Positions 33,355-45,705 of a stretch of DNA of 64,000 nucleotides are shown piece after piece (positions within the stretch are counted from its first letter, which is position 1; every line of letters begins with the position of its first letter). Position numbers and translations under genes: made by a program. Under the pieces are notes generated by a model. That model did no database searches. It was not told the origin of the DNA and saw only the letters and a list, made by a program, of their open reading frames with translations. Source of the DNA: an uncultured Candidatus Saccharibacteria bacterium (GTDB lineage Bacteria; Patescibacteriota; Minisyncoccia; Phycocordibacterales; UBA918); assembly GCA_964638425.1 (NCBI GenBank), contig CAZWYM010000003.1, forward strand, positions 16,289-80,288. The letters are read 5' to 3'.

Positions 33355-35046
33355 ATGAGAATTGATCCTACATATTGTTCTTGGGACACTTCACCTTTTT
33401 TGCTGATTTTTTCTGACAACGTATCAGAGAATTTTGTTTACTATTCGCATATTCTACCGGCTCTTTTCATTCTCATTTTTATTGCCGTCCTACTGAAACA
33501 AGATTTCAGCAATAAACTTGTAAAGGTTATTGCTGTTATTGCAATGTCATTTACAGCGTGGAGCCTATCGGATCTTATGCTTTGGTCGCAGGCAAATCCA
33601 GATTACATAATGTTTTTCTGGTCTATCCTCATCTATTTTGAAATATTCATATATATAGGCTCATTGTACTTCATGTACTACTTTATCGAGAAGAGAACCC
33701 TCACTTGGGTGCATGAACTTCTTATTTTTATACTATGTATTCCTATTTTTTTATTTGCACACACATCATTAAATTTGGCTAGCTTTGATTATACAAACTG
33801 CCTCAAAGAAGCTGTTGAAGGACCGCTTGTTGCATACGCATATGCCGTTGAACTAGTTATTGCAGTTTGGATATTACTTTATTCGATTAGCGCATACTTC
33901 AAGAAAAGTATCGAAAAAAATAAAAGAGAGATTGCCCTTGCTTCTACTGGTGTTCTACTGTTTTTGTTCTCATTTTCATTTGGAAACATTTTTGGTTCCT
34001 TTGACACAAATTACGAACTTGGACAACTTGGTCTCATGGCTACGCCAATTTTTATTGGTATCCTTGCATATATCAGCATCAAGTACGGAACATTTAACAT
34101 ACGGGCGATTGGAGCTGAGATTCTTATCGTCGCAATAATTCTTCTCATTGTTTCGATTCTTTTTAATACTGATATTCAAAATATTAGAATAACAGCAGGC
34201 TTCACTGCACTCATGACATCTATTCTTGGGTACATGCTCATTAAGAGTGTTAAACGAGAGGTAAAACTCCGTGAACAAATTGAAGAACTTGCATCTAATC
34301 TCCAAGTCGCAAACGACCGGCTTAAGGTGCTCGACAAGATGAAGTCAGAGTTCGTTTCTATTGCATCACACCAACTTCGTAGTCCGCTTACTGCTATCCG
34401 CGGGTACGCATCAATGCTTGAAGAAGGAACGTACGGAAAGATTCCTGCAAAGGCAGGGGAGGCACTCAACAAAATTGTTGAGTCGAGTAGATTTATGGCA
34501 CTTTCTATTGAAGACTACCTCAACGTATCTCGTATTGAAGCAGGGAACATGAAGTATGAAATGACCGATTTCAACCTCCGTGAACTTACCGAAAAACTCG
34601 TTGACGAACTCCGCCCAGTCGCAATCAAGAAGGGGCTCGTGATGGTATTCCGCTCAGAGTGTAATGGAAGTTGTTCTATTAGTGCGGACATCGGGAAGAC
34701 ACGTCAGATTCTCTCAAACCTCATTGATAACTCTATGAAGTACACTCCAAAGGGAACTATTACTGTAGTCGCTCACGACGACCCAAAGACTAAGAAAATG
34801 CTCATCACCATTCAAGACACTGGAATTGGAATGGACATGGAAACACAAGAGGATGTATTTGAAAAATTTGTTCGAGCAAAGAACGCGAACAGCGTAAACG
34901 TAACCGGTACAGGCCTCGGTCTCTACATTGCAAAGAAGATGATTCTCGAAATGAAGGGTAACGTCACCGTACACTCAGACGGAGAAGGAAAGGGTTCAAC
35001 ATTCACCGTAGAATTCCCACTCCTCCCCGGCAAAACCATGCGGTAA
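33355..35046 (+). CDS. sensor histidine kinase with multi-TM N-terminal sensor domain
   Basis: A HisKA H-box (FVSIASHQLRSPLTAIRGY) and an HATPase_c with N, G1 and G2 boxes (NLIDNSMKYT…DTGIGM…GTGLGLYI). There are more than 6 N-terminal TM helices. The exact start is uncertain. The upstream 73-aa ORF 33144..33365 could be a further TM segment. Confidence 0.8.
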   Translation: MRIDPTYCSWDTSPFLLIFSDNVSENFVYYSHILPALFILIFIAVLLKQDFSNKLVKVIAVIAMSFTAWSLSDLMLWSQANPDYIMFFWSILIYFEIFIYIGSLYFMYYFIEKRTLTWVHELLIFILCIPIFLFAHTSLNLASFDYTNCLKEAVEGPLVAYAYAVELVIAVWILLYSISAYFKKSIEKNKREIALASTGVLLFLFSFSFGNIFGSFDTNYELGQLGLMATPIFIGILAYISIKYGTFNIRAIGAEILIVAIILLIVSILFNTDIQNIRITAGFTALMTSILGYMLIKSVKREVKLREQIEELASNLQVANDRLKVLDKMKSEFVSIASHQLRSPLTAIRGYASMLEEGTYGKIPAKAGEALNKIVESSRFMALSIEDYLNVSRIEAGNMKYEMTDFNLRELTEKLVDELRPVAIKKGLVMVFRSECNGSCSISADIGKTRQILSNLIDNSMKYTPKGTITVVAHDDPKTKKMLITIQDTGIGMDMETQEDVFEKFVRAKNANSVNVTGTGLGLYIAKKMILEMKGNVTVHSDGEGKGSTFTVEFPLLPGKTMR

Positions 35047-35059
35047 TAGAATTATATTC

Positions 35060-35896
35060 ATGGAGAAAACTCATTTTTTAAATGGCAGATTTGTTTCGGA
35101 AAGTGAGCTTCTCATTTCTCCACGTGATCTTGGGTATTCACGAGGATATGCTGTATTTGATTTTTTGGTTACTTATCATCATAGGCCTTTTATGTTAAAA
35201 AGCCATGTTGACCGCCTTTTTCGTTCAGCTGAAGCAATAACACTTTATATTCCATGGACAAAAGAACAAGTTTCGGAGTGGATATTAAAGACTCTTGATG
35301 CTAATAAAGCAATGAATACTGAAAAAGTAATACGTATAACGATTTCAGGCGGTTCCTCGTTTATACTAACTCCTACAGATTCACCAACTATTGTAATCAC
35401 AATTGACTCTATGATTTACTGCTCTCCAGAAAACTATAAAGATGGGGTTGAGGTGAATTTGGTTGAATTTCAACGCTATCTACCTCAAGCGAAGACAAAT
35501 AATTATATTGAAGCAATTCGTAGTATGAACGGATCAAATACTCAAAATATCGATGAATTGATATACCACTCCAATGGTATGGTGCATGAAGGATCTCGTT
35601 GTAATATTTTTGCTGCCATAAATGGAAGACTTCTCACCCCTAAAACTAATATTCTTGAAGGGATAACACGAGGTGTGTTACTTGATATCCTAAAATTGAC
35701 AGTTCCAGTTGTAGCTGAGGATTTTTCAGTTGATGCCTTACATTCGGCATCTGAGATATTCCTCACCGCAACAGGTAAAGAGATAATGCCTGTAACTAAA
35801 ATAAACGGTGTTCGAGTAGGAAGTGGTTCAGTTGGTACTCTCACTAAGGGGGTTATGCAACAGTACAACTCTTTTGTTCACTCAGCTCTTTGGTAG
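35060..35896 (+). CDS. class IV aminotransferase (branched-chain/D-amino-acid aminotransferase fold)
   Basis: A 278 aa ORF with fold-type IV PLP enzyme pattern. The N-terminal region matches YSRGYAVFDFL. Later motifs are EGSRCNIF and GITRG. Confidence 0.75.
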   Translation: MEKTHFLNGRFVSESELLISPRDLGYSRGYAVFDFLVTYHHRPFMLKSHVDRLFRSAEAITLYIPWTKEQVSEWILKTLDANKAMNTEKVIRITISGGSSFILTPTDSPTIVITIDSMIYCSPENYKDGVEVNLVEFQRYLPQAKTNNYIEAIRSMNGSNTQNIDELIYHSNGMVHEGSRCNIFAAINGRLLTPKTNILEGITRGVLLDILKLTVPVVAEDFSVDALHSASEIFLTATGKEIMPVTKINGVRVGSGSVGTLTKGVMQQYNSFVHSALW

Positions 35897-35911
35897 TAAT
35901 GGTTCTAATTA

Positions 35912-36724
35912 CTAACTCCACATTGATAATGAATCGTTTTTGAGTGTCAAAAACGAATTAAGTGTTAGTCTGGTCTCACCAGGGCTGATTTGTTCAACCT
36001 GATGGAAATTTCGACTGCGGAAAATAATTAAATCGCCAGTCTCAGGAAAAATCTTTGTAGGTCTTTCATTTTGTAGGAATGATGGATTAAATCCATTTGG
36101 ACCTTTTTCAAAAATATCTTCATTATAAATATTATCCTCAGGTATCCAAGGGTGATTATAGATAATTAATTCTCCCCCTACACTTGGCATCTGTAGATAC
36201 AGAACGATAGCAAATTGTTCTTCTGATGCAGATACTTCCCACCCAGGGAGTTGGCTTGGTGCGTAGTCAAAATGTAATGTACTTTTTGCCCCCATTGCTC
36301 GGACAAGACCGGAAAAATAAACCGCATTATGCATGCTAGGTTCGTGCGCTAGAGATACAACATAGTCTTTTGAAAACAACTTGATTATTTTCTGAATAGG
36401 TTCTGATACACCAGAAAACATTTCGTCCTTGACTCGGACACATTCTGGAACAAGCTTGAAATAAAGGTCCTTTCCATTTATCTTGGAGTGGTATTCTGTT
36501 GCACTTATTCCAATCCTCCCTTGTCTATACTCAGCATCTTTATACCATGATATGTCATGCTCGTTGATGTTTTTTACGATGATATCTAGTTCATTTTGAT
36601 CAAAAAAATTCGAGATCTTAATTGCTGCAATATTGTTTGTAGCTAATAAAGGTAAGAGCACCTTTGCTTCCAGATCCCTATCAGCTTCTACTTTCTTTAT
36701 TTCCCAGTCTTTTGCATATTCCAT
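35912..36724 (-). CDS. Fe(II)/2-oxoglutarate-dependent oxygenase-like protein
   Basis: An HxD (LHFDYAP)…H (NFHQVEQI)…RxT (RLTLNSF) arrangement typical of the 2OG-oxygenase facial triad plus 2OG-binding Arg. The size fits the PhyH/hydroxylase class. Confidence 0.5.
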   Translation of the reverse strand: MEYAKDWEIKKVEADRDLEAKVLLPLLATNNIAAIKISNFFDQNELDIIVKNINEHDISWYKDAEYRQGRIGISATEYHSKINGKDLYFKLVPECVRVKDEMFSGVSEPIQKIIKLFSKDYVVSLAHEPSMHNAVYFSGLVRAMGAKSTLHFDYAPSQLPGWEVSASEEQFAIVLYLQMPSVGGELIIYNHPWIPEDNIYNEDIFEKGPNGFNPSFLQNERPTKIFPETGDLIIFRSRNFHQVEQISPGETRLTLNSFLTLKNDSLSMWS

Positions 36725-36806
36725 GATGTGAATAAATTATACCACCATAAGTCATATATGTTCAGATTATTTGCAAAGTGTTACAATTTCCATACACATA
36801 TACAAT

Positions 36807-38258
36807 ATGGAGCCGGTAAATATCATTATTATTGGAGTAGGACCCCATGCTCGGAGAATTTATATTCCAATACTCATGGAGCTTTCTAAAAGTATGCCCA
36901 TACGTTTGGTTGGGGCTGTGGACCTGCAGAAACAAAAAGAAGTCGTTGATTTGTATTTGAAGGAGAAAGAATGCTTCCTAAAGGCATTATATTTTGATCC
37001 ATTTGACGCAGCAGAGGGGTTGCCAGATAATTGTATAATCACACTTGATACTCTTGTTAAAGATTTAAATATACATGGCGTGGTGATTTCTACAGAGCCA
37101 ACCGCACACAAGGTGTATGCAGAATGGGCATTAAAGCGTGGCCTGCATATTCTTATGGATAAACCTATCTCTGTGAGAAAATCTATTTGTACAGAATCCT
37201 CACAAGCACAGGCCCTAATAAAGGATTACGAGGATTTGTTAGAGTTATACAATCAGCAACAACTCATTCGACCAACTGCCTTTTCAATTAGTGCACAAAG
37301 GAGATACGAATATGGATTTGAGATGGCGAAAAAATTAATTGCAGAAGTAAGAGATCGGTTTAATATGCCAGTCACTTCAATTCAAGCCATGCACGCAGAT
37401 GGAACGTGGATGTTCCCCAAAGAGGTCCTTTCCCAAGAATCTCATCGACACTTTGATGGTTATGGAAAAGTTTCTCATAGTGGCTACCATATATTTGATA
37501 TGGTGTGGCAATTATATGAAGCTGGACTCGTCGACAAAAAACGACCAGACCACCTAGAAATTCTTTCGTCCCCATTATTGCCAAGTGGCCTTAGTATTGA
37601 TCTGAATGAAAATGATTATCAAAAATATTTTGGTCACGAGTATGAATCAATACCACTTTCGGAGAAGGAGTACAGAGAAAAGGTTAAAACATATGGTGAA
37701 ATTGACTCCTTCAATATCATCAGACTTTTAAAGGGAAACGAGAATATTTGTAATATTTCTATAAATCTACTTCATAGTAGTTTTTCCCGACGTTCATGGG
37801 CAATACCTAATGCAGACCGATATAAAGGAAACGGTCGCGTTAAGCATCAGCAGTTCATTATTCAACAAGGACCATTCCAATGCATTCAAATCCATAACTA
37901 CCAGTCAAAAGGTTCTCATGATGTTGACAATTCAACTGAGTATGGAGCTGGCGGTAATAATCATTTTGATATTTACGTCTTTCGTAATAGAGAAATGTTC
38001 GGATCTGGAGAAGCTTTTTATAAAGTATCAGCCAAGGACCTCGAGGAGAAGGAGTGTGTAAGTCGACTGAATGTTGAAAATGCAAAAGAACGTGTGATTT
38101 TAGAATTTGTAAACTTTATGCTCGGAAAAGTTAATGTAGATAATTTAAAATCAAACATAGACACACACAACATACCTGTTAAGATTATGAGTGGTGTATA
38201 TCAATCAAGTATACGACTAATTAATCATCAGAATCCTTTAATATCAATGTCAATATGA
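36807..38258 (+). CDS. Gfo/Idh/MocA-family NAD(P)-dependent oxidoreductase-like protein
   Basis: An N-terminal Rossmann motif (IIIIGVGPHARRIYIPIL) and a conserved EKP-like region (ILMDKPIS). The C-terminal extension is long. Confidence 0.5.
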   Translation: MEPVNIIIIGVGPHARRIYIPILMELSKSMPIRLVGAVDLQKQKEVVDLYLKEKECFLKALYFDPFDAAEGLPDNCIITLDTLVKDLNIHGVVISTEPTAHKVYAEWALKRGLHILMDKPISVRKSICTESSQAQALIKDYEDLLELYNQQQLIRPTAFSISAQRRYEYGFEMAKKLIAEVRDRFNMPVTSIQAMHADGTWMFPKEVLSQESHRHFDGYGKVSHSGYHIFDMVWQLYEAGLVDKKRPDHLEILSSPLLPSGLSIDLNENDYQKYFGHEYESIPLSEKEYREKVKTYGEIDSFNIIRLLKGNENICNISINLLHSSFSRRSWAIPNADRYKGNGRVKHQQFIIQQGPFQCIQIHNYQSKGSHDVDNSTEYGAGGNNHFDIYVFRNREMFGSGEAFYKVSAKDLEEKECVSRLNVENAKERVILEFVNFMLGKVNVDNLKSNIDTHNIPVKIMSGVYQSSIRLINHQNPLISMSI

Positions 38259-38890
38259 AAGGCTCAATCTATTTAATCGGCGGTGGCGAAATTGGAAAAG
38301 GTGAAACTGCAAAAATTGATAATGAGTTAATAGAAATTACTCCTGCGGACAAGACACTTGTTTTTTTTGGCACAGCAGCAGGGGATAATCGAGAGTATAT
38401 TAATACGATTGAGTCGGTTTTTAAGTCCAACCTAAAGGTTATTGCTCCAACAGAGAAAGATGGTCCTGAGTTCGCACTCTCTTCCATAAATTCTGCATCA
38501 ATTATATATCTAGGAGGAGGTACAACCGAATTATTGTTAAATCTCTTTGAGAAATGGAGGCTTGTTCAGCCACTCCGTCACGCATTAAGTCGCGGAGCGC
38601 ATCTTGTAGGAATGAGTGCAGGGGCACAAGCTTTATCAGCATGGTATGTTCATGAGGATGAGAACTCTATGGAACTGCGAAGAGGATGGGGTTTCGTTTC
38701 CAGCTGTATACTTGTACATGCAGATCAGAATTCATCAGCACAAGCGGAAGTACTCTGGGGAGATAGCCAAGATGCTAACCAAAATCCTTTTATAGCGATT
38801 GGAGAAGGTGCAGCATGGCGTGTAAATCCTTCAGGGGCATTGAAAATTGGGACCGGCAAAATATGGCATTCCAAAATCACTGAATCATAA
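38255..38890 (+). CDS. peptidase S51 family (dipeptidase E/cyanophycinase-like)
   Basis: An IYLGGGTTELL motif and the nucleophile-elbow GMSAGAQAL match the S51 family. It is translationally coupled to the upstream gene by an ATGA overlap. Confidence 0.65.
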   Translation: MKGSIYLIGGGEIGKGETAKIDNELIEITPADKTLVFFGTAAGDNREYINTIESVFKSNLKVIAPTEKDGPEFALSSINSASIIYLGGGTTELLLNLFEKWRLVQPLRHALSRGAHLVGMSAGAQALSAWYVHEDENSMELRRGWGFVSSCILVHADQNSSAQAEVLWGDSQDANQNPFIAIGEGAAWRVNPSGALKIGTGKIWHSKITES

Positions 38891-38957
38891 AGAAATGCGT
38901 TGTCCTCAATCCACTTTTTCTGACATAGTGCATTAAAAATGCCCCATTTTTTAATTA

Positions 38958-38986
38958 TTGACTATAATTATTTTCTATCGTATATT
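38958..38986 (+). promoter_or_regulatory. sigma70-like promoter TTGACT-N17-TATATT plus strong SD (AAGGAG) for AlaRS-like gene
   Basis: The -35 is at 38958-38963 and the -10 at 38981-38986. AAGGAG lies 7 nt before ATG 39032. Confidence 0.5.
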
Positions 38987-39031
38987 AATTAATAGTTTCG
39001 CTCATTGTAATCAAACATAAGGAGAATCGTC

Positions 39032-40153
39032 ATGATTAGTTCTTTGAAAGAAAGTTTCCTTGATTATCATCAGGCACGAGGGTTTTGTATATATGAGTCC
39101 TTTCCTTTGGTAATTGATGACCCTACAATCCTATTCACAAATGCTACAATAACACCATTTAAGTCCATGTTCATGGGAGAGGGGGAGAGAATAAATTATG
39201 CTCTTGTTCAGAAATGTCTACGTTTAGGAGGGACAGGGGGGAATCTTGAAACACCTCGTTCAAACATGAACTACACTTCCTTATTCGATATGCTCGGAAG
39301 CGGACTATTTGATGTTAATCAAGACTCTGCAGTAACTTACTTCGTTGAAGTACTCATCGAGCTTGGTCTCCAGAAAAAAAATCTCGTGTTTAGCACCACT
39401 TATAATTCTGGTTTTGACTTGGCTTTGGAACGAGCAGGAATAAGTGCGAGTCAAATCAGACTCTTCAACGATCCAAAAGAGATCCAGCACGAATGGAGTT
39501 TTGGGGAAGGAGATTTGCATGGTTGTGGAGTGGTGGCTTGGTGTGTTCCTGAAAGCTATCTAGGACACACTTTCGACAGTATCCCACAAGAACTTTTTCA
39601 GTATGTTCAAATAGGAAGGATAGTCCATATCGATGGTGTTGCACGAGTTTCAACTGTAGAGTTGTTCCCATACTCAGCATACGATATGGGAATCGGGTTG
39701 AATAGGGTTGAGGCAGCTCTCAATGGGAACTGTGAAATGTCTATGTATCCATGGAGAATGCTTTCGAAACAACTTCAATCTTCAATACATGGGCTTTATA
39801 AAACCGATGCCCATTACATGGCGAATCTCTATCGTGTAGCTGAGGATCTGATTGGTGAAGGGCTTCTTCCTGGGAAGAAGAAGCATGCTTATGCTCTTCG
39901 GAAAGTAGTACGATTACTTATCGAGGAGATTTGGCTAAAGTCAAAGGCATTGGTAGATATTTACACAGTGTTGCGGGAGTCGATTAACACATCCGCTTAT
40001 CGAGACTTGCTCATCCAGGTTCTTTCTCAGGAAGAAGTAGCTTTACGTGGGGTACTTTCTGTTGCCATACAAAAGCAGAAGAAGTACCCCGGCATGAATC
40101 CTGAAGAACTGCGTTCAACGTTCGGAATTCGTCCGAGCCTTCTCAAGCTTTAA
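39032..40153 (+). CDS. stand-alone alanyl-tRNA-synthetase catalytic-domain paralog (class II aaRS-like amino-acid activating enzyme)
   Basis: The 373 aa sequence ESFLDYHQARGFCIYESFPLVIDDPTILFTNATITPFKSMFMGE…QKCLRLGGTGGNLET…YTSLFDMLGSGLFD aligns with AlaRS motifs FF..GH..V.SSLVP.NDPTLLFTNAGM..FK…QRCVRAGGKHNDLE…HHTFFEMLGNFSFG. It has no tRNA-recognition, editing or C-Ala domains. The bona fide alaS is elsewhere in the window. Confidence 0.7.
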   Translation: MISSLKESFLDYHQARGFCIYESFPLVIDDPTILFTNATITPFKSMFMGEGERINYALVQKCLRLGGTGGNLETPRSNMNYTSLFDMLGSGLFDVNQDSAVTYFVEVLIELGLQKKNLVFSTTYNSGFDLALERAGISASQIRLFNDPKEIQHEWSFGEGDLHGCGVVAWCVPESYLGHTFDSIPQELFQYVQIGRIVHIDGVARVSTVELFPYSAYDMGIGLNRVEAALNGNCEMSMYPWRMLSKQLQSSIHGLYKTDAHYMANLYRVAEDLIGEGLLPGKKKHAYALRKVVRLLIEEIWLKSKALVDIYTVLRESINTSAYRDLLIQVLSQEEVALRGVLSVAIQKQKKYPGMNPEELRSTFGIRPSLLKL

Positions 40154-40380
40154 GCACTAAAAATTTTTAAGAGGTAACAAAACGAGGGTGCCAACACACC
40201 TTCGTTTTTTTATTTTGAATAGCAAGGTGAGAAAATGGGTAAATCTGATTAAATTTGTAGAGACAATCTGATCAGTTGATACCCAAGTATTCTTTTCATA
40301 TATAAAAGCATATCACTTAATATTTCATAAAGAAAATGACGCGAATAATATCGCGTCATTTAGTTTGAGGCATTACATAC

Positions 40381-41139
40381 TTAAGGAACTATATCTGCTA
40401 TTTCGTTGATGACCTGAGCCCATGTAACAATCCTCTTGATGTCTGGAACAGAATCAAATACTCTAACTTCAACTGTACCGTGTGTCGAAATTCGAATCAA
40501 ATCCCAGCACTGTCTTGGGTCTTCTTCACACCCTCTTGCACGCATAGCTTCATGGAATTCTTCCCATGAAGTATATGCCTGAGGAAGTGTGTCTGAAGCC
40601 ATTAGACGATACAGTGCCATTCTTTGCCCGTTGCAAGTATCACCCATATTTTTTAACTCATAGAAATGCTTAATGAGTCGATTATAGACAATAATTGCTT
40701 CGGTTGTATTTCTTACACCAATATGGAAATGTACCGCTGCGACTCGACAAGCAGCGAGAAGCACTTCTTGTGGGAGTCTTTCCACAATACGGGCATATCT
40801 ACCTGTTGGATCAGGATACACTTCTACAGACATCTCTTGAGGGGCCACTGGTATATGCTCCAGTTTAAGTCCGAGAGTACTAGCAGCTTCAGCAGCTGTT
40901 TTTTCAATTTGAAAAAGCTCAGCGTAGAGATTACTTAGCAAGGTTGGACTTGTACGCATTTCTAATTGACAAGCAGAAAGCTCATAACCGTATTTCCCAT
41001 TTTTCGGTAAAAGATTAAGAACCGATACCGCATGTGGAACAATTACATTGCCATCCATCAGAAAGCATTCTCGTTCAACACCAAAATGTCCTCTATGTTC
41101 AGGCTTAAAGCAAAACCTACCCGTAAACGAATTATTCAT
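40381..41139 (-). CDS. GCS2-family carboxylate-amine ligase (YbdK/EgtA-like glutamate-cysteine ligase family 2)
   Basis: The motifs HFGVERECFLMD (compare YbdK LGIELEMQVV), AVHFHIGV (compare HVHVGC) and GTVEVRVFD (compare GTVEVRVMD) are present. The start was chosen at ATG 41139, preceded by AAAGGGGTG. The ORF caller extended it to 41235. Confidence 0.65.
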   Translation of the reverse strand: MNNSFTGRFCFKPEHRGHFGVERECFLMDGNVIVPHAVSVLNLLPKNGKYGYELSACQLEMRTSPTLLSNLYAELFQIEKTAAEAASTLGLKLEHIPVAPQEMSVEVYPDPTGRYARIVERLPQEVLLAACRVAAVHFHIGVRNTTEAIIVYNRLIKHFYELKNMGDTCNGQRMALYRLMASDTLPQAYTSWEEFHEAMRARGCEEDPRQCWDLIRISTHGTVEVRVFDSVPDIKRIVTWAQVINEIADIVP

Positions 41140-41600
41140 TTCTACACCCCTTTCAAGGATAAAAGATTTAAAAGAACAAAATATATTCGAAGAATTTTTT
41201 GTTGAAATATAATCAACAAAAAAACTCCTCGTCACTGCACATGTTTAATAAACATGTAAAGGGACGAGGAGTTTTATCAACTCACGTGGTACCACCCTCT
41301 TTAGAATTTACATTTCAAAATAAATTCACTTATTGACTCATACACATACCACATTAAGGTATGCAGACATCAATTATCCCATGATTACGGAGGATGCCGG
41401 ACTTTCACTAACGCAGTAGTCACCCTTCTTCACTTGGAAGAAAATTGTGGCCCAATCTCGTACAATTTCAAATTGACGAGACCACAATATGGGTTTTCAG
41501 TGCTCAGAACGAACTACAATAACTAAATTTGATAGTACCGTAGAAAAACACTCCATGCAAATGCTGGTTAACTGAAGCGGATTTTTGTTATAATCACATA

Positions 41601-42044
41601 ATGCAATACAGCAATAATATTCAAATTGTTCTTGATATTCTCAAAAACGAAGTTGATGGGGATATTTCTAGTGCACTTGAGAAAATGACTTCAGACTACT
41701 CAATGACGTGGATGTATCAAAAAGGGGAGTCGTTTTTCCCTGTGGTAAAAAGTGACATGCCTAAGAAACTCGAAGACGTGTATCCCATACAGGGGAGAAA
41801 GTATGACATTCGAAACATTACCGAAGGGAATGATGTCGTTATGATTGAGGTTATTGAAAGCTATCCTGACCCAGAGACGGGGAAACTGTACAAAACTCCG
41901 CAAGTCATAGTCCTTGAAATGGAAGAGGGGAAGATTAAAACAGGAAGACACTACTGTGACCCTCGACTCTCACACGCCAATCTTTCAGACGAACAGATAA
42001 ATTCCGCACTCAATGACACTGATACAAAGGTAGAAATAAAGTAG
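41601..42044 (+). CDS. hypothetical protein, NTF2/SnoaL-like fold suspected
   Basis: A 147 aa acidic protein. Its size and alternating pattern fit an NTF2-like fold. The match is weak. Confidence 0.3.
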   Translation: MQYSNNIQIVLDILKNEVDGDISSALEKMTSDYSMTWMYQKGESFFPVVKSDMPKKLEDVYPIQGRKYDIRNITEGNDVVMIEVIESYPDPETGKLYKTPQVIVLEMEEGKIKTGRHYCDPRLSHANLSDEQINSALNDTDTKVEIK

Positions 42045-42047
42045 GCT

Positions 42048-42479
42048 CTAGTTTGTCCCGAGACTCGAAATTAATTTTTCGACCAAAGCTTTGATTTGAT
42101 CAAGAGTTTTTTCTGATATCTCCCGCGTCGCAAATTTCGGATTTTCGATTTCCCACCATACCACTTTTTGATTCTCACTAAGAAACTCTGGAATAAAGGG
42201 GTGCTCAGCCATAGAGATTACAACATCGAATTCCTCAATCATTTCAGGAGTAAGTTTCTTCATTCTGTTATTTCTGATACTCATCCCATTCTCTTCCATG
42301 AGTTCAAAAAAGTCAGGAGTTCGAAAGTATTTTTGGATAAGGTCATTATCTGGAGCATCATCCGCACCCACATACGTTCCAGCAGAATCAGCGTTAGATG
42401 ATTGTGTTAATTTATTATACAAAGCAGCCGCCATTTGGCTCCTAAACTGATTGTATTTGCAGATAAAGAGTACTTTCAT
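42048..42479 (-). CDS. low-molecular-weight phosphotyrosine phosphatase/ArsC-family arsenate reductase
   Basis: An N-terminal P-loop (VLFICKYNQFRSQMAAAL, a CX5R motif) is diagnostic of the LMW-PTP/ArsC fold. Confidence 0.7.
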   Translation of the reverse strand: MKVLFICKYNQFRSQMAAALYNKLTQSSNADSAGTYVGADDAPDNDLIQKYFRTPDFFELMEENGMSIRNNRMKKLTPEMIEEFDVVISMAEHPFIPEFLSENQKVVWWEIENPKFATREISEKTLDQIKALVEKLISSLGTN

Positions 42480-43444
42480 AATGAAAATGATTTTACTGGT
42501 CGCGAATAAAAGAGAACCTCCTCATCATAGCTGTTCGGAATAACACCTTGCGGACAAAAAACAACATGGCAATCAAATGGTGTAAACACGGGGCCTGTGT
42601 CACCTGAAGCAATGAGTGTCTGTGCGGGTAGATATTCAAAATTTTTTAAAGGTTTGTTCAGTGTGAATGTTTTATTGGGGAAAATTAGTGAATCATCAAT
42701 ATAATATTCAACATGTTCATGTGTAGTAACCTCCTTAACAGGTTCAATCATATTAAGATTTTGCAACAAGGCGAGAGTTGAATCTATAGCAATTTTGAAT
42801 GAACGAGGACTTTCGTGCGTACCAGACTCAATGACAAGAACAGAAGCTGGATTAGTAGTAGCTCCATAAAAACTACTAACGGGCTTTCCGATTTGAACTG
42901 TATCTATATTTGAAATAACTAATTGGATAGGGAAGCCACGTACTAAATCAGTCCGCAGTGAGCCATTGAGGTTAATGATCATTGGATCTGAATCTTGTGT
43001 TGTACTATGAATATCAAGCCCAAACTCAAATTCCTGGAAAATTGGTAAAAGTTCCTTTGTACGTAAAACTTCATATGATGAATGACTGTTGTTTTTGAGT
43101 AAATCATCCGGTAGACGGTTCATATTTACATCAACAAACCTCGCGCGAACCCTCTCTTCAGTTGTACTTGCTTTAAAATTATTTTCTGCGGCTTTTATAT
43201 TATTCAAAACAAGATAAACAGAACCTTTTAAAAGCTTCTGTCTAAGTTTAAATTCATCTAGTAAATATTGAAATACAGCGAGTCCTGAAGGTTCATTACC
43301 GTGAGTACAGGCAGTAATTCCTAAAACTGGACCTGGTTCATTTCCTTGAATTAAAACAACTCCAGGAACACCATTATGCTCCATACTCTTAATTCTATTC
43401 AGAATACCTTCGAGATCATTCATATCTATATACCGTAACAACAA
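42476..43444 (-). CDS. succinylglutamate desuccinylase/aspartoacylase (AstE/AspA) family zinc deacylase
   Basis: The motifs ITACTHGNEPSG (compare AstE ISAGIHGNE) and GLDIHST (compare HLDLHTA) are present. It overlaps the ArsC gene by 4 nt. Confidence 0.7.
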   Translation of the reverse strand: MLLRYIDMNDLEGILNRIKSMEHNGVPGVVLIQGNEPGPVLGITACTHGNEPSGLAVFQYLLDEFKLRQKLLKGSVYLVLNNIKAAENNFKASTTEERVRARFVDVNMNRLPDDLLKNNSHSSYEVLRTKELLPIFQEFEFGLDIHSTTQDSDPMIINLNGSLRTDLVRGFPIQLVISNIDTVQIGKPVSSFYGATTNPASVLVIESGTHESPRSFKIAIDSTLALLQNLNMIEPVKEVTTHEHVEYYIDDSLIFPNKTFTLNKPLKNFEYLPAQTLIASGDTGPVFTPFDCHVVFCPQGVIPNSYDEEVLFYSRPVKSFSL

Positions 43445-43486
43445 ACATCCTAAGAAGCAAAGAGGGAGAACAGGAGCTTTGTAAAC

Positions 43487-43529
43487 GGCTGGTATTTTGG
43501 TACTATTTTGTGATACCTATGAAAAAGAA
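43487..43529 (+). repeat. direct repeat copy 1 (duplicate of trpS promoter/5' end)
   Basis: The sequence CTTTGTAAACGGCTGGTATTTTGGTACTATTTTGTGATACCTATGAAAAAG. It is 51/52 identical to 44503-44554. Confidence 0.7.
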
Positions 43530-44496
43530 AACTCTCCATGATGTAAAATCGCCTGTTATATATCAAGCAAAGTCTGGTGCTATTGAATTGCGTGGTGACT
43601 TGGAAAAAGAGACTGTTTGGGCAACACTTGACCAAATCGCTACAGTTTTCGGGCGTGATAAATCAGTAATTTCTCGACACCTAAAAAATATTTTTAGTGA
43701 AGGTGAACTATCAAGAGCTTCAGTTGTTGCAAAAAATGCAACAACTGCCGCAGATGGAAAAACGTATAATGTTGAATACTACAATCTTGATGTAATTATT
43801 TCAGTCGGATATCGCGTTAACTCAAAGATTGCTACGCAGTTCCGCCAATGGGCGACCAGGACACTCCGCGAACACATCGTAAAAGGGTACACGCTTAACC
43901 GGAAGCGGATTGGGGCAAACTATGATGCTTTTATGAAGAGTGTGAGTGACATCCAAGCCCTCCTTCCTGAACATGTAACTCTCGACCCAAAGGCTGTTCT
44001 TGAACTTATTAAAGAATTTGCGAGCACGTGGGTTTCACTTGATGCATACGACAAAGAATCTCTCATACTTAAGGGTGTTAGTAAAAAGAAAGTGACTTTG
44101 GTGAGTGATGAACTCTATAAAGCAATTCAAATACTGAAACATGACCTAGAAAAGAAAGGCGAGGCCACAGAAATTTTTGCTCACGAGCGTCGTGAAGGAA
44201 ACCTCGAAGGTATTGTAGGAAATGTCATGCAGTCATTTGGTGGAAAGTCTGTATATCCGACAGTGGAAGAGAAGGCAGCGCACTTACTTTACTTCATGGT
44301 AAAAAATCATCCATTTACCGATGGTAATAAGCGTTCAGGTGCGTTTGCGTTTATATGGTTCCTCAGAAAAACTGGAGTGAAAGGAGCCAAAAACATCAAC
44401 CCATCGGCACTTACAGCACTCACGCTCCTTATTGCAGAAAGTGACCCGAAAAGGAAAGAACAAATGGTCGCTCTTGTGACACAGATGTTGCGATAA
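43519..44496 (+). CDS. RhuM-domain / Fic-Doc family fusion protein (toxin-like)
   Basis: The N-terminal RhuM-like region is (…SVISRHLKNIFSEGEL…NVEYYNLDVIISVGYRVNSKIATQFRQWAT…). The C-terminal Fic/Doc motif is HPFTDGNKRSGAFAFIWFL. The start is at ATG 43519. The ORF caller used GTG 43510. Confidence 0.75.
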   Translation: MKKKTLHDVKSPVIYQAKSGAIELRGDLEKETVWATLDQIATVFGRDKSVISRHLKNIFSEGELSRASVVAKNATTAADGKTYNVEYYNLDVIISVGYRVNSKIATQFRQWATRTLREHIVKGYTLNRKRIGANYDAFMKSVSDIQALLPEHVTLDPKAVLELIKEFASTWVSLDAYDKESLILKGVSKKKVTLVSDELYKAIQILKHDLEKKGEATEIFAHERREGNLEGIVGNVMQSFGGKSVYPTVEEKAAHLLYFMVKNHPFTDGNKRSGAFAFIWFLRKTGVKGAKNINPSALTALTLLIAESDPKRKEQMVALVTQMLR

Positions 44497-44502
44497 ACAC
44501 TC

Positions 44503-44554
44503 CTTTGTAAATGGCTGGTATTTTGGTACTATTTTGTGATACCTATGAAAAAAA
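44503..44554 (+). repeat. direct repeat copy 2 (native trpS promoter/5' end)
   Basis: See copy 1. It contains a candidate promoter, TTGTAA-N16-TACTAT. Confidence 0.7.
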
Positions 44555-45483
44555 GACTACTTACAGGGATGCAACCTTCAGGTGCGCTCCATATTGGAAA
44601 TTACTTTGGCGCACTCAAACCATTTGTTGATGTATACAAGGACTTCGACAGCCACATCATGGTTGCTGACCTTCATGCACTCACCTCACTTCGTGACCCA
44701 AAGACACTTCGTCAAAATATCATCGACGTTGTAAAGGACTACGTAGCGGTCGGAGTGAACCCCGATGAGGCAATTCTCTTTAAGCAATCAGACGTACCGG
44801 AGCATACTGAGCTTGCATGGATTTTTGAGTGTCTCGTTACCGTTCCATTCCTCAATCAAGCACACGCATACAAAGACAAAGTAGCGAAAGGACTCGAAGC
44901 AAACGCAGGTCTCTTCAACTACCCAATGCTTATGGCGTCTGACATTCTCCTCTATGACGTGGATGCGGTACCTGTAGGAGAAGACCAACGACAACACATT
45001 GAGTACGCGCGGGAAGCGAGTACGAAGTTTAATAACGCATACGGAGAAACCTTCACCATGCCAAAGGAGATGATACTTGCTGGTGTTGGTGTTGTACCGG
45101 GGACTGACGGACAGAAGATGAGTAAGAGTTACAAAAACACCATTCCACTTTTCGGTACAACAGATGAAATTACAAAAGCAGTTATGAGTATCGTGACTGA
45201 TTCGAGTGGAGAACTACCAAAGAACGTATACGCTATTCACACTCTCTTTAGAAGCAAGGAAGCGCTTGATGCACTCTACGCAGAACACGCAGGGAAGTAC
45301 AAGAACCTCAAGGATGCACTTATTGCTGATATAGAAGCAGTTGTTTCTCCTATGCGCGAGAAGCGAGCAAGCATTACCGATGCAAACGTAGCATACATCC
45401 TCAAAGATGGAGCAGAGAAGGCACGAGTACGCGCATCAAAGAAGATGCAGGAAATTCGTGAGAAGGTTGGTATTTCGCTCTAA
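44545..45483 (+). CDS. trpS: tryptophanyl-tRNA synthetase
   Basis: Class I HIGH-type motif (PSGALHIGNYFGAL), KMSKS and full-length TrpRS similarity. Confidence 0.9.
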   Translation: MKKRLLTGMQPSGALHIGNYFGALKPFVDVYKDFDSHIMVADLHALTSLRDPKTLRQNIIDVVKDYVAVGVNPDEAILFKQSDVPEHTELAWIFECLVTVPFLNQAHAYKDKVAKGLEANAGLFNYPMLMASDILLYDVDAVPVGEDQRQHIEYAREASTKFNNAYGETFTMPKEMILAGVGVVPGTDGQKMSKSYKNTIPLFGTTDEITKAVMSIVTDSSGELPKNVYAIHTLFRSKEALDALYAEHAGKYKNLKDALIADIEAVVSPMREKRASITDANVAYILKDGAEKARVRASKKMQEIREKVGISL

Positions 45484-45487
45484 TTTC

Positions 45488-45645
45488 TTGACGGAGAGGC
45501 GGGTACGCAGTACTCTACTAGTAACCAACGACGCAGCTGACAACTGCCGAGGCATGCAAACAAAATGAGTGTCTCCTGTGATTTGGCGAAGCCAAATCAC
45601 AGGAGAAAGTAGGGTGGCACCGCGGAATTCTCAATGAGAAACCGC
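45488..45645 (+). promoter_or_regulatory. T-box riboswitch leader (probable Asp specifier) upstream of aspS
   Basis: The sequence TAGGGTGGCACCGCGG at 45610-45625 matches the T-box core consensus (A)AUUAGGGUGGNACCGCGG. A perfect 15-bp Stem III-like hairpin, CTCCTGTGATTTGGC-gaag-GCCAAATCACAGGAG, lies immediately upstream at 45571-45603. The antiterminator can be drawn as AGGG/UGGCACC/GCGG…CCGC/CCCU. The Stem I region contains GCUGACA, a GNUGA-like motif followed by GAC-A. Confidence 0.55.
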
Positions 45646-45705
45646 CCCTGCAGAAATTATTTAACTAATTCTGTGGGTGATTTCTAATTTCCCACTACAT
45701 TCATT

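Follow-up and report, generated by a model that had tools for sequence, protein, structure and literature searches.

Insertion of a gene unit with long duplication of its target, a process of unknown mechanism, has been described for restriction-modification systems, most of them from naturally competent bacteria (Furuta, Abe and Kobayashi 2010, NAR 38:2428, PMC2853133). The same study proposed a cycle in which such units invade a genome, are amplified through their repeats and are then released (Furuta, Abe and Kobayashi 2010, PMC2853133). Here, we describe an arrangement of this rare but already described kind around a single gene. The window, i.e. the whole stretch of 64,000 nt that was analysed, comes from an uncultured Candidatus Saccharibacteria bacterium (assembly GCA_964638425.1, contig CAZWYM010000003.1). 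It contains a gene for a RhuM-Doc protein, in which a RhuM-type N-terminal region is fused to a Doc-type Fic domain (hereafter the Fic gene). This gene stands directly upstream of trpS, the housekeeping gene for tryptophanyl-tRNA synthetase, and each of the two genes is preceded by a copy of the same 50-nt repeat, R. We consider it probable that the Fic gene, a single-gene module already resident at this locus, lost its own leader and gained a copy of the 50-nt trpS promoter, leader and start codon through one microhomology-guided illegitimate duplicative recombination, which would have produced the order R-Fic-R-trpS.

Several other described systems resemble parts of this arrangement. The Doc protein of phage P1, which belongs to the Phd-Doc type II toxin-antitoxin module, is an EF-Tu kinase. 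The protein described here resembles it by a C-terminal Doc-type motif, HxFx(D/N)(A/G)NKR, by having Doc proteins as its sole matches among solved structures and by a weak match to the NCBIfam profile TIGR01550. It differs from it in that this match lies below the cut-off, in that neither Phd nor another antitoxin gene is present, and in that a RhuM-type N-terminal region of 200 residues is fused to the Doc-type part. RhuM-Doc fusions have been noted among genes of restriction-modification and defence (Anantharaman et al. 2013, PMC3710099). These fusions and the PADLOC profile PDC-S23 share the domain architecture of the present gene, which nevertheless adjoins a housekeeping tRNA synthetase gene instead of lying in a defence island or restriction-modification operon, and uses the predicted promoter of that gene. 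Phage morons and integron gene cassettes are likewise compact one-gene units, with boundaries tight around the open reading frame (ORF) and expression from signals at the insertion point. However, neither an attC-like site nor an integron integrase is present here, the flanking repeats derive from the target and not from the element, and no relative of the Fic protein was found in viral contigs by exact peptide patterns, a search of limited sensitivity. Finally, homology-facilitated illegitimate recombination is established in naturally competent bacteria; its occurrence in naturally transformable bacteria was reportedly described by de Vries and Wackernagel in 2002 and by Prudhomme et al. in 2002. 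With a donor in which Fic directly precedes trpS, one homologous anchor and one microhomology junction of 3-10 nt would suffice to give R-Fic-R-trpS, whereas this process does not by itself cover other repeat-flanked loci of the family, such as L077 (see below).

The direct repeat before the Fic gene and trpS

A repeat search across positions 43300-44700 of the window returned one family of direct repeats, with a first copy (R1) at 43477-43526 and a second copy (R2) at 44503-44552, both on the + strand. The repeat is real. Its copies are 50 nt long, identical at 49 of the 50 positions and 1026 nt apart, their sole mismatch being a C/T difference at repeat position 10. A search for the 40-nt exact core (43487-43526 and 44513-44552) that tolerated up to 3 mismatches gave these two occurrences and no other in the 64 kb, and 0 occurrences are expected from 100 shuffles. 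The original prediction had reported an identical direct repeat of 51/52 nt; the repeat itself stands, while its length has to be corrected, the ungapped identity stopping after ATGAAAAA and the final G counted there aligning only with a 2-nt gap. Each copy reaches 8 nt into an ORF, namely from the ATG at 43519 for RhuM-Fic (325 aa) and from the ATG at 44545 for TrpS (312 aa). A flank-repeat score was obtained by aligning the 250 nt upstream of an ORF, plus 30 nt into it, with the 250 nt downstream; when all window ORFs of at least 100 aa were scanned, the RhuM-Fic gene scored 47 and the next best ORF 16. The only inverted repeat found at the locus is one 12-nt pair whose arms are 788 nt apart; in addition, a small inverted repeat, GGTAT(N17)ATACC, can be read in the repeat core.

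Independent assemblies, in which the original prediction expected the repeat to recur, support it indirectly. The identical TrpS is found on four Logan contigs, each from a different run, and each of these contigs begins at window position 44523, which is the first 31-mer no longer common to both repeat copies. Logan assemblies use k=31, and these starts support the repeat because a k=31 de Bruijn graph must branch at this point if the repeat exists; we infer a second graph branch in the four runs. Six Logan assemblies of a relative with a single-copy trpS leader run from the histidine kinase gene upstream straight into trpS.

The composition of R is that of a putative promoter with start codon: a -35-like TTGTAA, a 16-nt spacer, TG-n-TACTAT, a leader of few bases (five to six) and the start codon. 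In R1, which stands before the RhuM-Doc gene, these elements lie at 43479-43484 (TTGTAA), 43498-43499 (TG), 43501-43506 (TACTAT) and 43519 (ATG); in R2, which occupies the working position before trpS, they lie at 44505-44510 (TTGTAA), 44527-44532 (TACTAT) and 44545 (ATG). The 6-nt tail ACACTC (44497-44502, +) separates the Fic stop from R2, and a terminator scan of the locus found no terminator between the Fic stop and trpS. The trpS gene itself (44545-45483, +; Pfam PF00579, E=5.5e-57) is followed in its orthologues by the conserved order aspS, pepA, scpA and scpB.

Orthologues of trpS were gathered by homology search and contig look-ups, and the relatives are designated here by their locus numbers. 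The closest one is L085 (GCA_043719255.1), whose TrpS is 88% identical to that of the window. A single copy of CTTTGTAAAAAGCTGGTATTTTGGTACTATTTTGTGATACCTATGAAAAA stands there immediately ahead of trpS and agrees with either window copy at 48 of 50 positions and at 39 of 39 in the core; the coding sequence of trpS shows 79% identity between the same two genomes (50.5% at third codon positions), and its longest identical stretch measures 23 nt. The Fic genes of L085 and L086 share another leader, which consists of a hairpin plus TGTTAGAAT or TGTTATGAT. R is thus the native trpS promoter plus start codon, because L085 has the same sequence once and before trpS only. The motif TTTGrTAsTATT is kept in L085-L088, 12-13 nt before the ATG of trpS, and the motif T[TG]G[GA]TA[CG]TATT occurs in each of five relatives only before trpS and exactly twice in the window; the predicted promoter function of R rests on this conservation of the -10 motif. 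Across 169 fetched loci, the repeat core is present in a single one, the trpS leader of L085, and it is absent from the viral contigs searched. The claim of the original prediction that trpS expression signals (TTGTAA-N16-TACTAT and the first codons) are duplicated before RhuM-Fic agrees with these data, L085 carrying the repeat once upstream of trpS and its Fic gene having another leader.

Flanking repeats across the RhuM-Doc family

The flank scan was extended to the family after removal of duplicate sequences, with ORFs of at least 200 aa from the same loci as controls and a score threshold of at least 20. This score was reached by 14 of 125 Fic genes and by 3 of 331 control ORFs (Fisher p=2.4e-6), and one of the three scoring controls is another RhuM-like gene. 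The flanking repeats span 20-85 nt; each locus has a repeat sequence of its own, which consists of host features. At L077, a perfect repeat of 73 nt covers the entire intergenic region with the stop and start codons of the neighbour, and the last 9 nt of the upstream gene. The repeat corresponds to a promoter plus start codon at L168 and L152, to terminator hairpins at L042, L043 and L036, and to the first 20-85 nt of the downstream gene at L138, L110 and L105. The upstream copy terminates in ATGAAAA, at the start of Fic, in the window and in L077, L152 and L168, four loci that are unrelated; ATGAAAA is the native start of 64 among 149 family members. The distance from repeat to ORF ranges from -9 to +66 nt at the 5' end and from -11 to +46 nt at the 3' end. 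Terminal repeats, sought as a sign of a circle or of an R-Fic-R unit, were not found on short contigs with Fic as their only gene.

These data allow a close comparison with the insertions with long target duplication of Furuta et al. (2010). The window locus has flanking direct repeats of more than 30 bp (50 nt, 49/50), which are a single-copy sequence at the same locus of a related genome (the L085 trpS leader, 48/50, once), and it has neither a mobility gene nor a high-copy repeat (two copies in 64 kb). In both cases, a selfish or defence unit devoid of transposase and integrase is flanked by repeats of variable length (20-85 nt here versus 45-420 bp there), and such repeats are significantly commoner than for average genes; gene fusions at junctions had also been noted in that study. 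By contrast, the cargo here is a single RhuM-Doc gene and not a restriction-modification system, and the hosts are Patescibacteria. The junction lies exactly in the start codon (ATGAAAA) at four loci, the cargo taking the host promoter and ATG. Finally, the cargo in the window appears to be an old resident of its locus (see below), and the genomes compared include no clean conspecific empty site.

Other loci of the family present features of their own. The Fic gene lies upstream of a TspO gene in several genomes (L110, L105 and L052). At L110 (3843-3927 and 4956-5040) and at L105, a second copy of the first 85 nt of the TspO coding sequence stands upstream of Fic; it is a decaying fragment of 41 codons and looks like an older version of the same kind of scar. 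Among the three control genes that reached the threshold, one at L064 (618-1448) has a perfect 21-nt flanking direct repeat, and its N-terminus resembles by eye domains of the Bro-N/antirepressor type. The highest-scoring control encodes 310 aa (L055, 7478-8410) and lies between two diverged copies of ~125 nt that look by eye like a coding segment of a phosphoenolpyruvate (PEP)-utilising enzyme. At L152 (1753 onward), the gene after Fic is a second gene with a RhuM N-terminal domain, which starts with the repeated ATGAAGAAC; two RhuM-family genes lie there in tandem behind copies of the same 57-nt segment. In P0085, a 408-aa homologue from Kaiserbacteria, a GIY-YIG domain (PF01541) is fused ahead of RhuM-Fic; this protein may have arisen by fusion with a host gene at a junction, or may be a variant armed with a nuclease.

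The RhuM-Doc gene and its history in the island

The Fic gene (43519-44496, +) encodes a single-gene toxin-like or candidate defence protein of 325 aa. Its assignment to the Fic/Doc superfamily follows from the Pfam profile PF02661 (Fic/DOC; residues 208-282, 47.0 bits versus a cut-off of 24). The RhuM profile PF13310 reaches 83.2 bits (cut-off 33.7), but over profile positions 1-69 of 252 only, which correspond to residues 68-133. PADLOC profiles PDC-S05 match residues about 10-146, and PDC-S23, a candidate for single-gene phage defence, matches residues 11-324 on profile positions 6-323 of 327 (E=8.9e-114); a literature search found no paper mentioning PDC-S23, whose defence activity is a prediction. 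The sole PDB matches are weak ones to Doc structures (9vzc and 3k33, E=0.002-0.16). The active-site motif, read from the sequence, is H264-PFTDGNK-R272 followed by SGA (44308-44334, +). It is of the Doc type, with a lysine in place of the second glycine of the canonical Fic motif and devoid of the trailing xxR; H264, P265, F266, D268, G269, N270, K271 and R272 are invariant in 34 homologues, T267 alone being variable. The profile search for the Fic/Doc subclass gave a divided answer, since the Doc motif is present whereas TIGR01550 (DOC_P1) scores 33.4 bits, below its cut-off of 38.65. The motif makes a Doc-like kinase the most likely activity of the protein, in preference to an AMPylase.

This family counts more than 8000 homologues in a homology search, mostly from Patescibacteria. 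Relatives were found in species-representative genomes (472) and in metagenome contigs (at least 535), nearly all labelled Patescibacteria, and the best foreign matches to the window protein are only 83% identical. All ORFs within 1.2 kb of the gene were clustered across 160 loci in search of a partner, and no neighbour family occurs in more than 10 of them. The largest ones, each present in at most 10 of the 160 loci, are type I hsdR and hsdM, ArsR-like, TspO and TrpS; a type I restriction-modification hsdR or hsdM gene adjoins the Fic gene in 9 of 160 loci. In the window, only 6 nt separate the Fic stop from R2, and no antitoxin gene was found there, the only other ORFs being embedded out of frame or antisense. 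An adjacent, co-oriented and conserved small antitoxin gene, by which type II toxin-antitoxin modules are recognized, is thus missing both in the window and across the 160 loci. With no conserved neighbour in these loci and no room for an antitoxin in the window, the gene is, on genomic evidence, a one-gene module and not a canonical toxin-antitoxin pair. The original prediction was right in these respects: it had named a RhuM and Fic/Doc gene with an HPFxDGNKR motif, which both Pfam matches and the HPFTDGNKR motif bear out, and had noted that no antitoxin is adjacent. Its inhibition would come from within the polypeptide itself and would be relieved by a signal that the swappable N-terminal domain reads, whereupon the protein would act as a toxin of the abortive-infection or addiction type.

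In the window and its relatives, trpS closes a variable island whose conserved left anchor is a histidine kinase gene (33355-35046, +; Pfam HisKA and HATPase_c), with orthologues upstream of trpS in L082, L085-L088 and L092. In L087 and L170-L172, the interval between the two anchors is empty and measures 57 nt. The same empty 57-nt interval is deduced for L173-L176 from identical gene spacing, their contigs being cut inside the upstream gene. The kinase gene is followed by two small genes, Fic and trpS in L082; by Fic, a 199-aa gene and trpS in L086; by NUDIX, Fic, MazE, RelE-like and trpS in L085; by a different gene set without Fic and then trpS in L088; and by several genes, Fic and trpS in L092. 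In the window, 8.4 kb of low-GC accessory genes precede Fic and trpS. The Fic gene is therefore found in this island in 5 of 7 distinct arrangements (window, L082, L085, L086, L087, L088 and L092), the L087 arrangement being that of a species also seen in L170-L176. It stands directly before trpS in L092 and L082, and the distance from its stop to the homologous CTTTCTAAA box of the trpS promoter is 5 nt in L092 and 6 nt in the window.

Residues 106-325 of the window protein are 94% identical to the L085 Fic protein, with 83% identity at the nucleotide level and 55% at third codon positions. This third-position divergence matches that of trpS (50.5%), and the window Fic gene is therefore best regarded as an old resident of the variable island and not as a newcomer. 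Its first 12 residues (..VKSPVIYQ) are also of the L085/L086 type. A sliding window places a different segment between them: residues about 35-105, which form the helix-turn-helix part of the RhuM domain (43621-43833, +), are 37-57% identical to L085, versus 90-100% beyond residue 105, with a third-position identity of 0.19-0.30. This patch is 80-88% identical to L092, L005 and L006. Family-wide, two patch types can be distinguished over alignment columns 26-100 of 156 loci, 128 of which are nearer the window's type A and 28 nearer the type B of L085. Homologous patch replacement has, by this comparison, also occurred in the Fic gene, because residues 35-105 belong to another allele. The swap of helix-turn-helix alleles between otherwise orthologous genes recalls the swapping of target recognition domains in restriction-modification systems. 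Both the patch and distances that are incongruent with those of TrpS (see below) rule out a purely vertical history of the whole gene, just as the synonymous-site comparison with L085 rules out a purely foreign origin. The hairpin-plus-promoter leader common to L085 and L086 is likely the ancestral Fic leader, and the window gene would therefore have had its own leader replaced by R.

A comparison with orthologous trpS loci had been proposed along with the original prediction. It confirmed the single-copy leader in L085, and it spoke against a fresh insertion at trpS: residues 106-325 are as diverged from L085 as trpS is, and Fic orthologues or related genes lie in the same island of L085, L086, L092 and L082. 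When the window was compared with empty sites, the right side matched in all relatives, the left flank (on the AstE side) had no counterpart, and the orthologous Fic gene of L085 lay elsewhere in the island. The neighbours of the unit are AstE-like, low-molecular-weight (LMW) phosphatase, trpS and aspS, and Pfam scans of the locus neighbours found mobility genes, such as a transposase or an integrase, neither in the unit nor next to it. An insertion sequence, transposon or integron cassette does not fit either, as terminal inverted repeats, a target duplication of fixed length and an integrase are all missing.

The island contains further modules. The 8.4-kb accessory block between the histidine kinase gene and the repeat (35047-43476; GC 36-40%) encodes an aminotransferase IV, a WelO5-like 2-oxoglutarate (2OG) oxygenase, a GFO/IDH oxidoreductase, a peptidase S51, a 373-aa fragment resembling alanyl-tRNA synthetase (AlaRS), a GCS2 ligase, an LMW phosphatase and an AstE/AspA-like protein, and it may be a cluster for small-molecule or amino-acid ligation. 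In L085 (1967-2462), genes for a MazE-like antitoxin and an 81-aa RelE/ParE-like toxin lie between Fic and trpS, and the same pair directly follows the kinase gene in L088. In L089, trpS is immediately preceded by an 82-aa gene that may be related. The MazE-RelE/ParE pair seems to represent another mobile module that makes use of this island. The leader of the L085 MazE gene was considered as an older copy of the trpS promoter and rejected, as it is homologous to the L088 MazE leader instead. In L082 (4988-5972), the trpS gene downstream of Fic is split into two overlapping ORFs, by a frameshift that reflects either a sequencing error or pseudogenisation.

Proposed event and competing explanations

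In the proposed event, the left junction would lie inside ATGAAAAA, the native start of both genes, the ATGAAAAA of trpS having been joined to that of Fic, and the right junction would lie 6 nt beyond the stop of Fic, on the upstream border of the -35 box of trpS. The result would equal that of an insertion with a long, variable target duplication, here of a gene that had moved within the island or had come back from a conspecific through natural transformation. Two versions fit the window. In version (a), the resident gene would have been relocated or re-inserted with a 50-nt target duplication, via a staggered break or by joining to two sister copies at a replication fork; this version explains loci such as L077 in one step. 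In version (b), a conspecific donor with Fic directly before trpS would have contributed the gene through a homologous crossover in R2 or trpS and an illegitimate left join at ATGAAAAA; this version explains the position of the R2 junction, which is common with L092. Either would amount to the capture of trpS expression signals by the Fic gene that the original prediction had put forward, R1 being a copy of the native trpS leader that replaced the likely ancestral Fic leader. As a consequence, both genes would be transcribed from identical, nearly leaderless extended -10 promoters, and trpS would keep an intact promoter, with read-through from Fic possible in the absence of a terminator after it. 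The 50-nt repeats would also allow scarless loop-out of a 1026-bp circle with the complete, promoter-equipped gene.

Several observations weigh against this reconstruction. The putative promoter in R agrees with the plain sigma-70 consensus at 8 of 12 positions and was not listed by a simple consensus scan. The trpS leader is strongly constrained (39/39 versus L085), and the 49/50 identity of the two copies therefore does not date the event. Fic distances are not fully congruent with those of TrpS (67% versus 77% for L085-L092, for example), so recombination and transfer have also shaped the gene. A possible remnant of the L085 RelE-like gene upstream of R1 was dismissed, since the 11-nt match is reached by 13% of shuffles. 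An AlphaFold2 model built from 34 homologues has a mean predicted local distance difference test (pLDDT) score of 58, too poor to assess intramolecular inhibition. Finally, the exact Fic protein is recorded from the NCBI contig only and not from the four Logan runs with the identical TrpS, where the Fic-bearing insertion may be a minority variant, unless the record is incomplete. A homology search with the N-terminal 111 residues, aimed at fragments from Logan, returned no 100%-identical Fic fragment, and neither the Fic protein (with ATG or GTG start) nor the upstream AstE-like protein (with either of two starts) has an exact match on record, which makes the junctions unreadable in independent assemblies.

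Among the alternatives, homology-facilitated illegitimate recombination during natural transformation is a possible, if less probable, source of the arrangement. A donor with Fic, 6 nt, R and trpS would have met a recipient with R directly before trpS and no Fic at that spot; the two R copies would come from two genomes, with no duplication as such. Only one illegitimate junction, at an 8-nt microhomology, would be needed; the start of R2 6 nt after the Fic stop, as in L092 (5 nt), would be explained; the single C/T difference between the copies could be allelic; and the hypervariability of the island among relatives makes mixed arrangements within one species plausible. Genetic manipulation of Saccharibacteria has been reported in a published paper and is said to rely on natural transformation. 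However, no conspecific donor or recipient genome was seen among the loci compared, loci of the L077 type are not explained in one step, and the fate of the ancestral Fic copy with its own leader is left unexplained. The insertion favoured by the original prediction can be read as a foreign Fic/Doc cassette that was acquired horizontally and entered the trpS leader for the first time, with a 50-nt target duplication. Such an acquisition would fit a flanking repeat of which a relative has one copy at the matching position, the low GC content at third codon positions of Fic (35% versus 44-52% in downstream core genes), a very mobile and widespread family whose tree is incongruent with TrpS, and the same anatomy at unrelated loci. 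It is nonetheless unlikely given the synonymous divergence of residues 106-325, the L085/L086-type N-terminal residues, the presence of Fic in the same island of related genomes and the modest identity of the best foreign matches. Slightly more doubtful still is the idea that RhuM-Doc genes are autonomous promoter-capturing mobile genes of Patescibacteria, i.e. units of ~1 kb with a dedicated insertion route, a preference for ATGAAAA and a loop-out circle. Such a unit would take the host promoter and start codon while regenerating both for the host gene, possibly through a cDNA or single-stranded intermediate, with variable duplications like those of target-primed reverse transcription, or through breaks provoked by the protein.

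An assembly artefact, in which a Fic fragment of another strain or organism was joined into the contig via a shared k-mer, would be conceivable for a metagenome-assembled contig that is the only recorded source of the exact Fic protein, while its TrpS is also found in four Logan runs. We regard it as very improbable: the repeat copies differ at one base, which a duplicate made by an assembler would not; a mis-join would require R at both ends of the foreign fragment; the Logan contigs break at the repeat boundary, which points to a second continuation after R in the reads, whereas relatives with a single copy assemble through; and the orthology of Fic with the L085 island copy fits this genome. 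Least credible of all is that R represents a general promoter or regulatory cassette, such as the operator of co-regulated genes, instead of a recombination scar. The unusual conservation of the core between the window and L085 and its small inverted repeat could speak for an operator. Yet the core has only two copies in the 64 kb and one occurrence in the fetched loci, with none in the viral contigs; the identity runs through the start codon and ends abruptly on both sides; and the looser -10 motif stands only before trpS in each of the five relatives, and not before unrelated genes, as the original prediction had considered for a common promoter cassette.

Besides these features, Rfam models at their gathering threshold and a tRNA scan found nothing in the window. 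The aspS leader (45484-45705, +) contains GGGTGGCACCGCG and a 16-bp hairpin (45572-45606). The Rfam T-box model matches positions 45558-45649 (+) with 29.6 bits (E=5e-5), over its 3' third only (model positions 150-216) and against a gathering score of 93. A T-box riboswitch of divergent or reduced form may thus be present in this Patescibacterium.

The locus shows how a toxin-like or defence gene of a streamlined, probably naturally competent bacterium can be rewired onto the promoter of an essential gene, which remains unharmed. Insertion with long target duplication, so far described for restriction-modification systems, is hereby extended to Patescibacteria and to a single-gene module of the Doc type. 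Roughly one ninth of the family members keep the scar, and start-codon microhomology recurs at the junction. Combined with population reads, the family would provide a tractable data set on the mechanism of long duplications, a poorly understood route of gene mobility in Patescibacteria. The flanking repeats predict reversible loss of the gene and circle formation, and therefore presence/absence variation of the toxin gene within populations.

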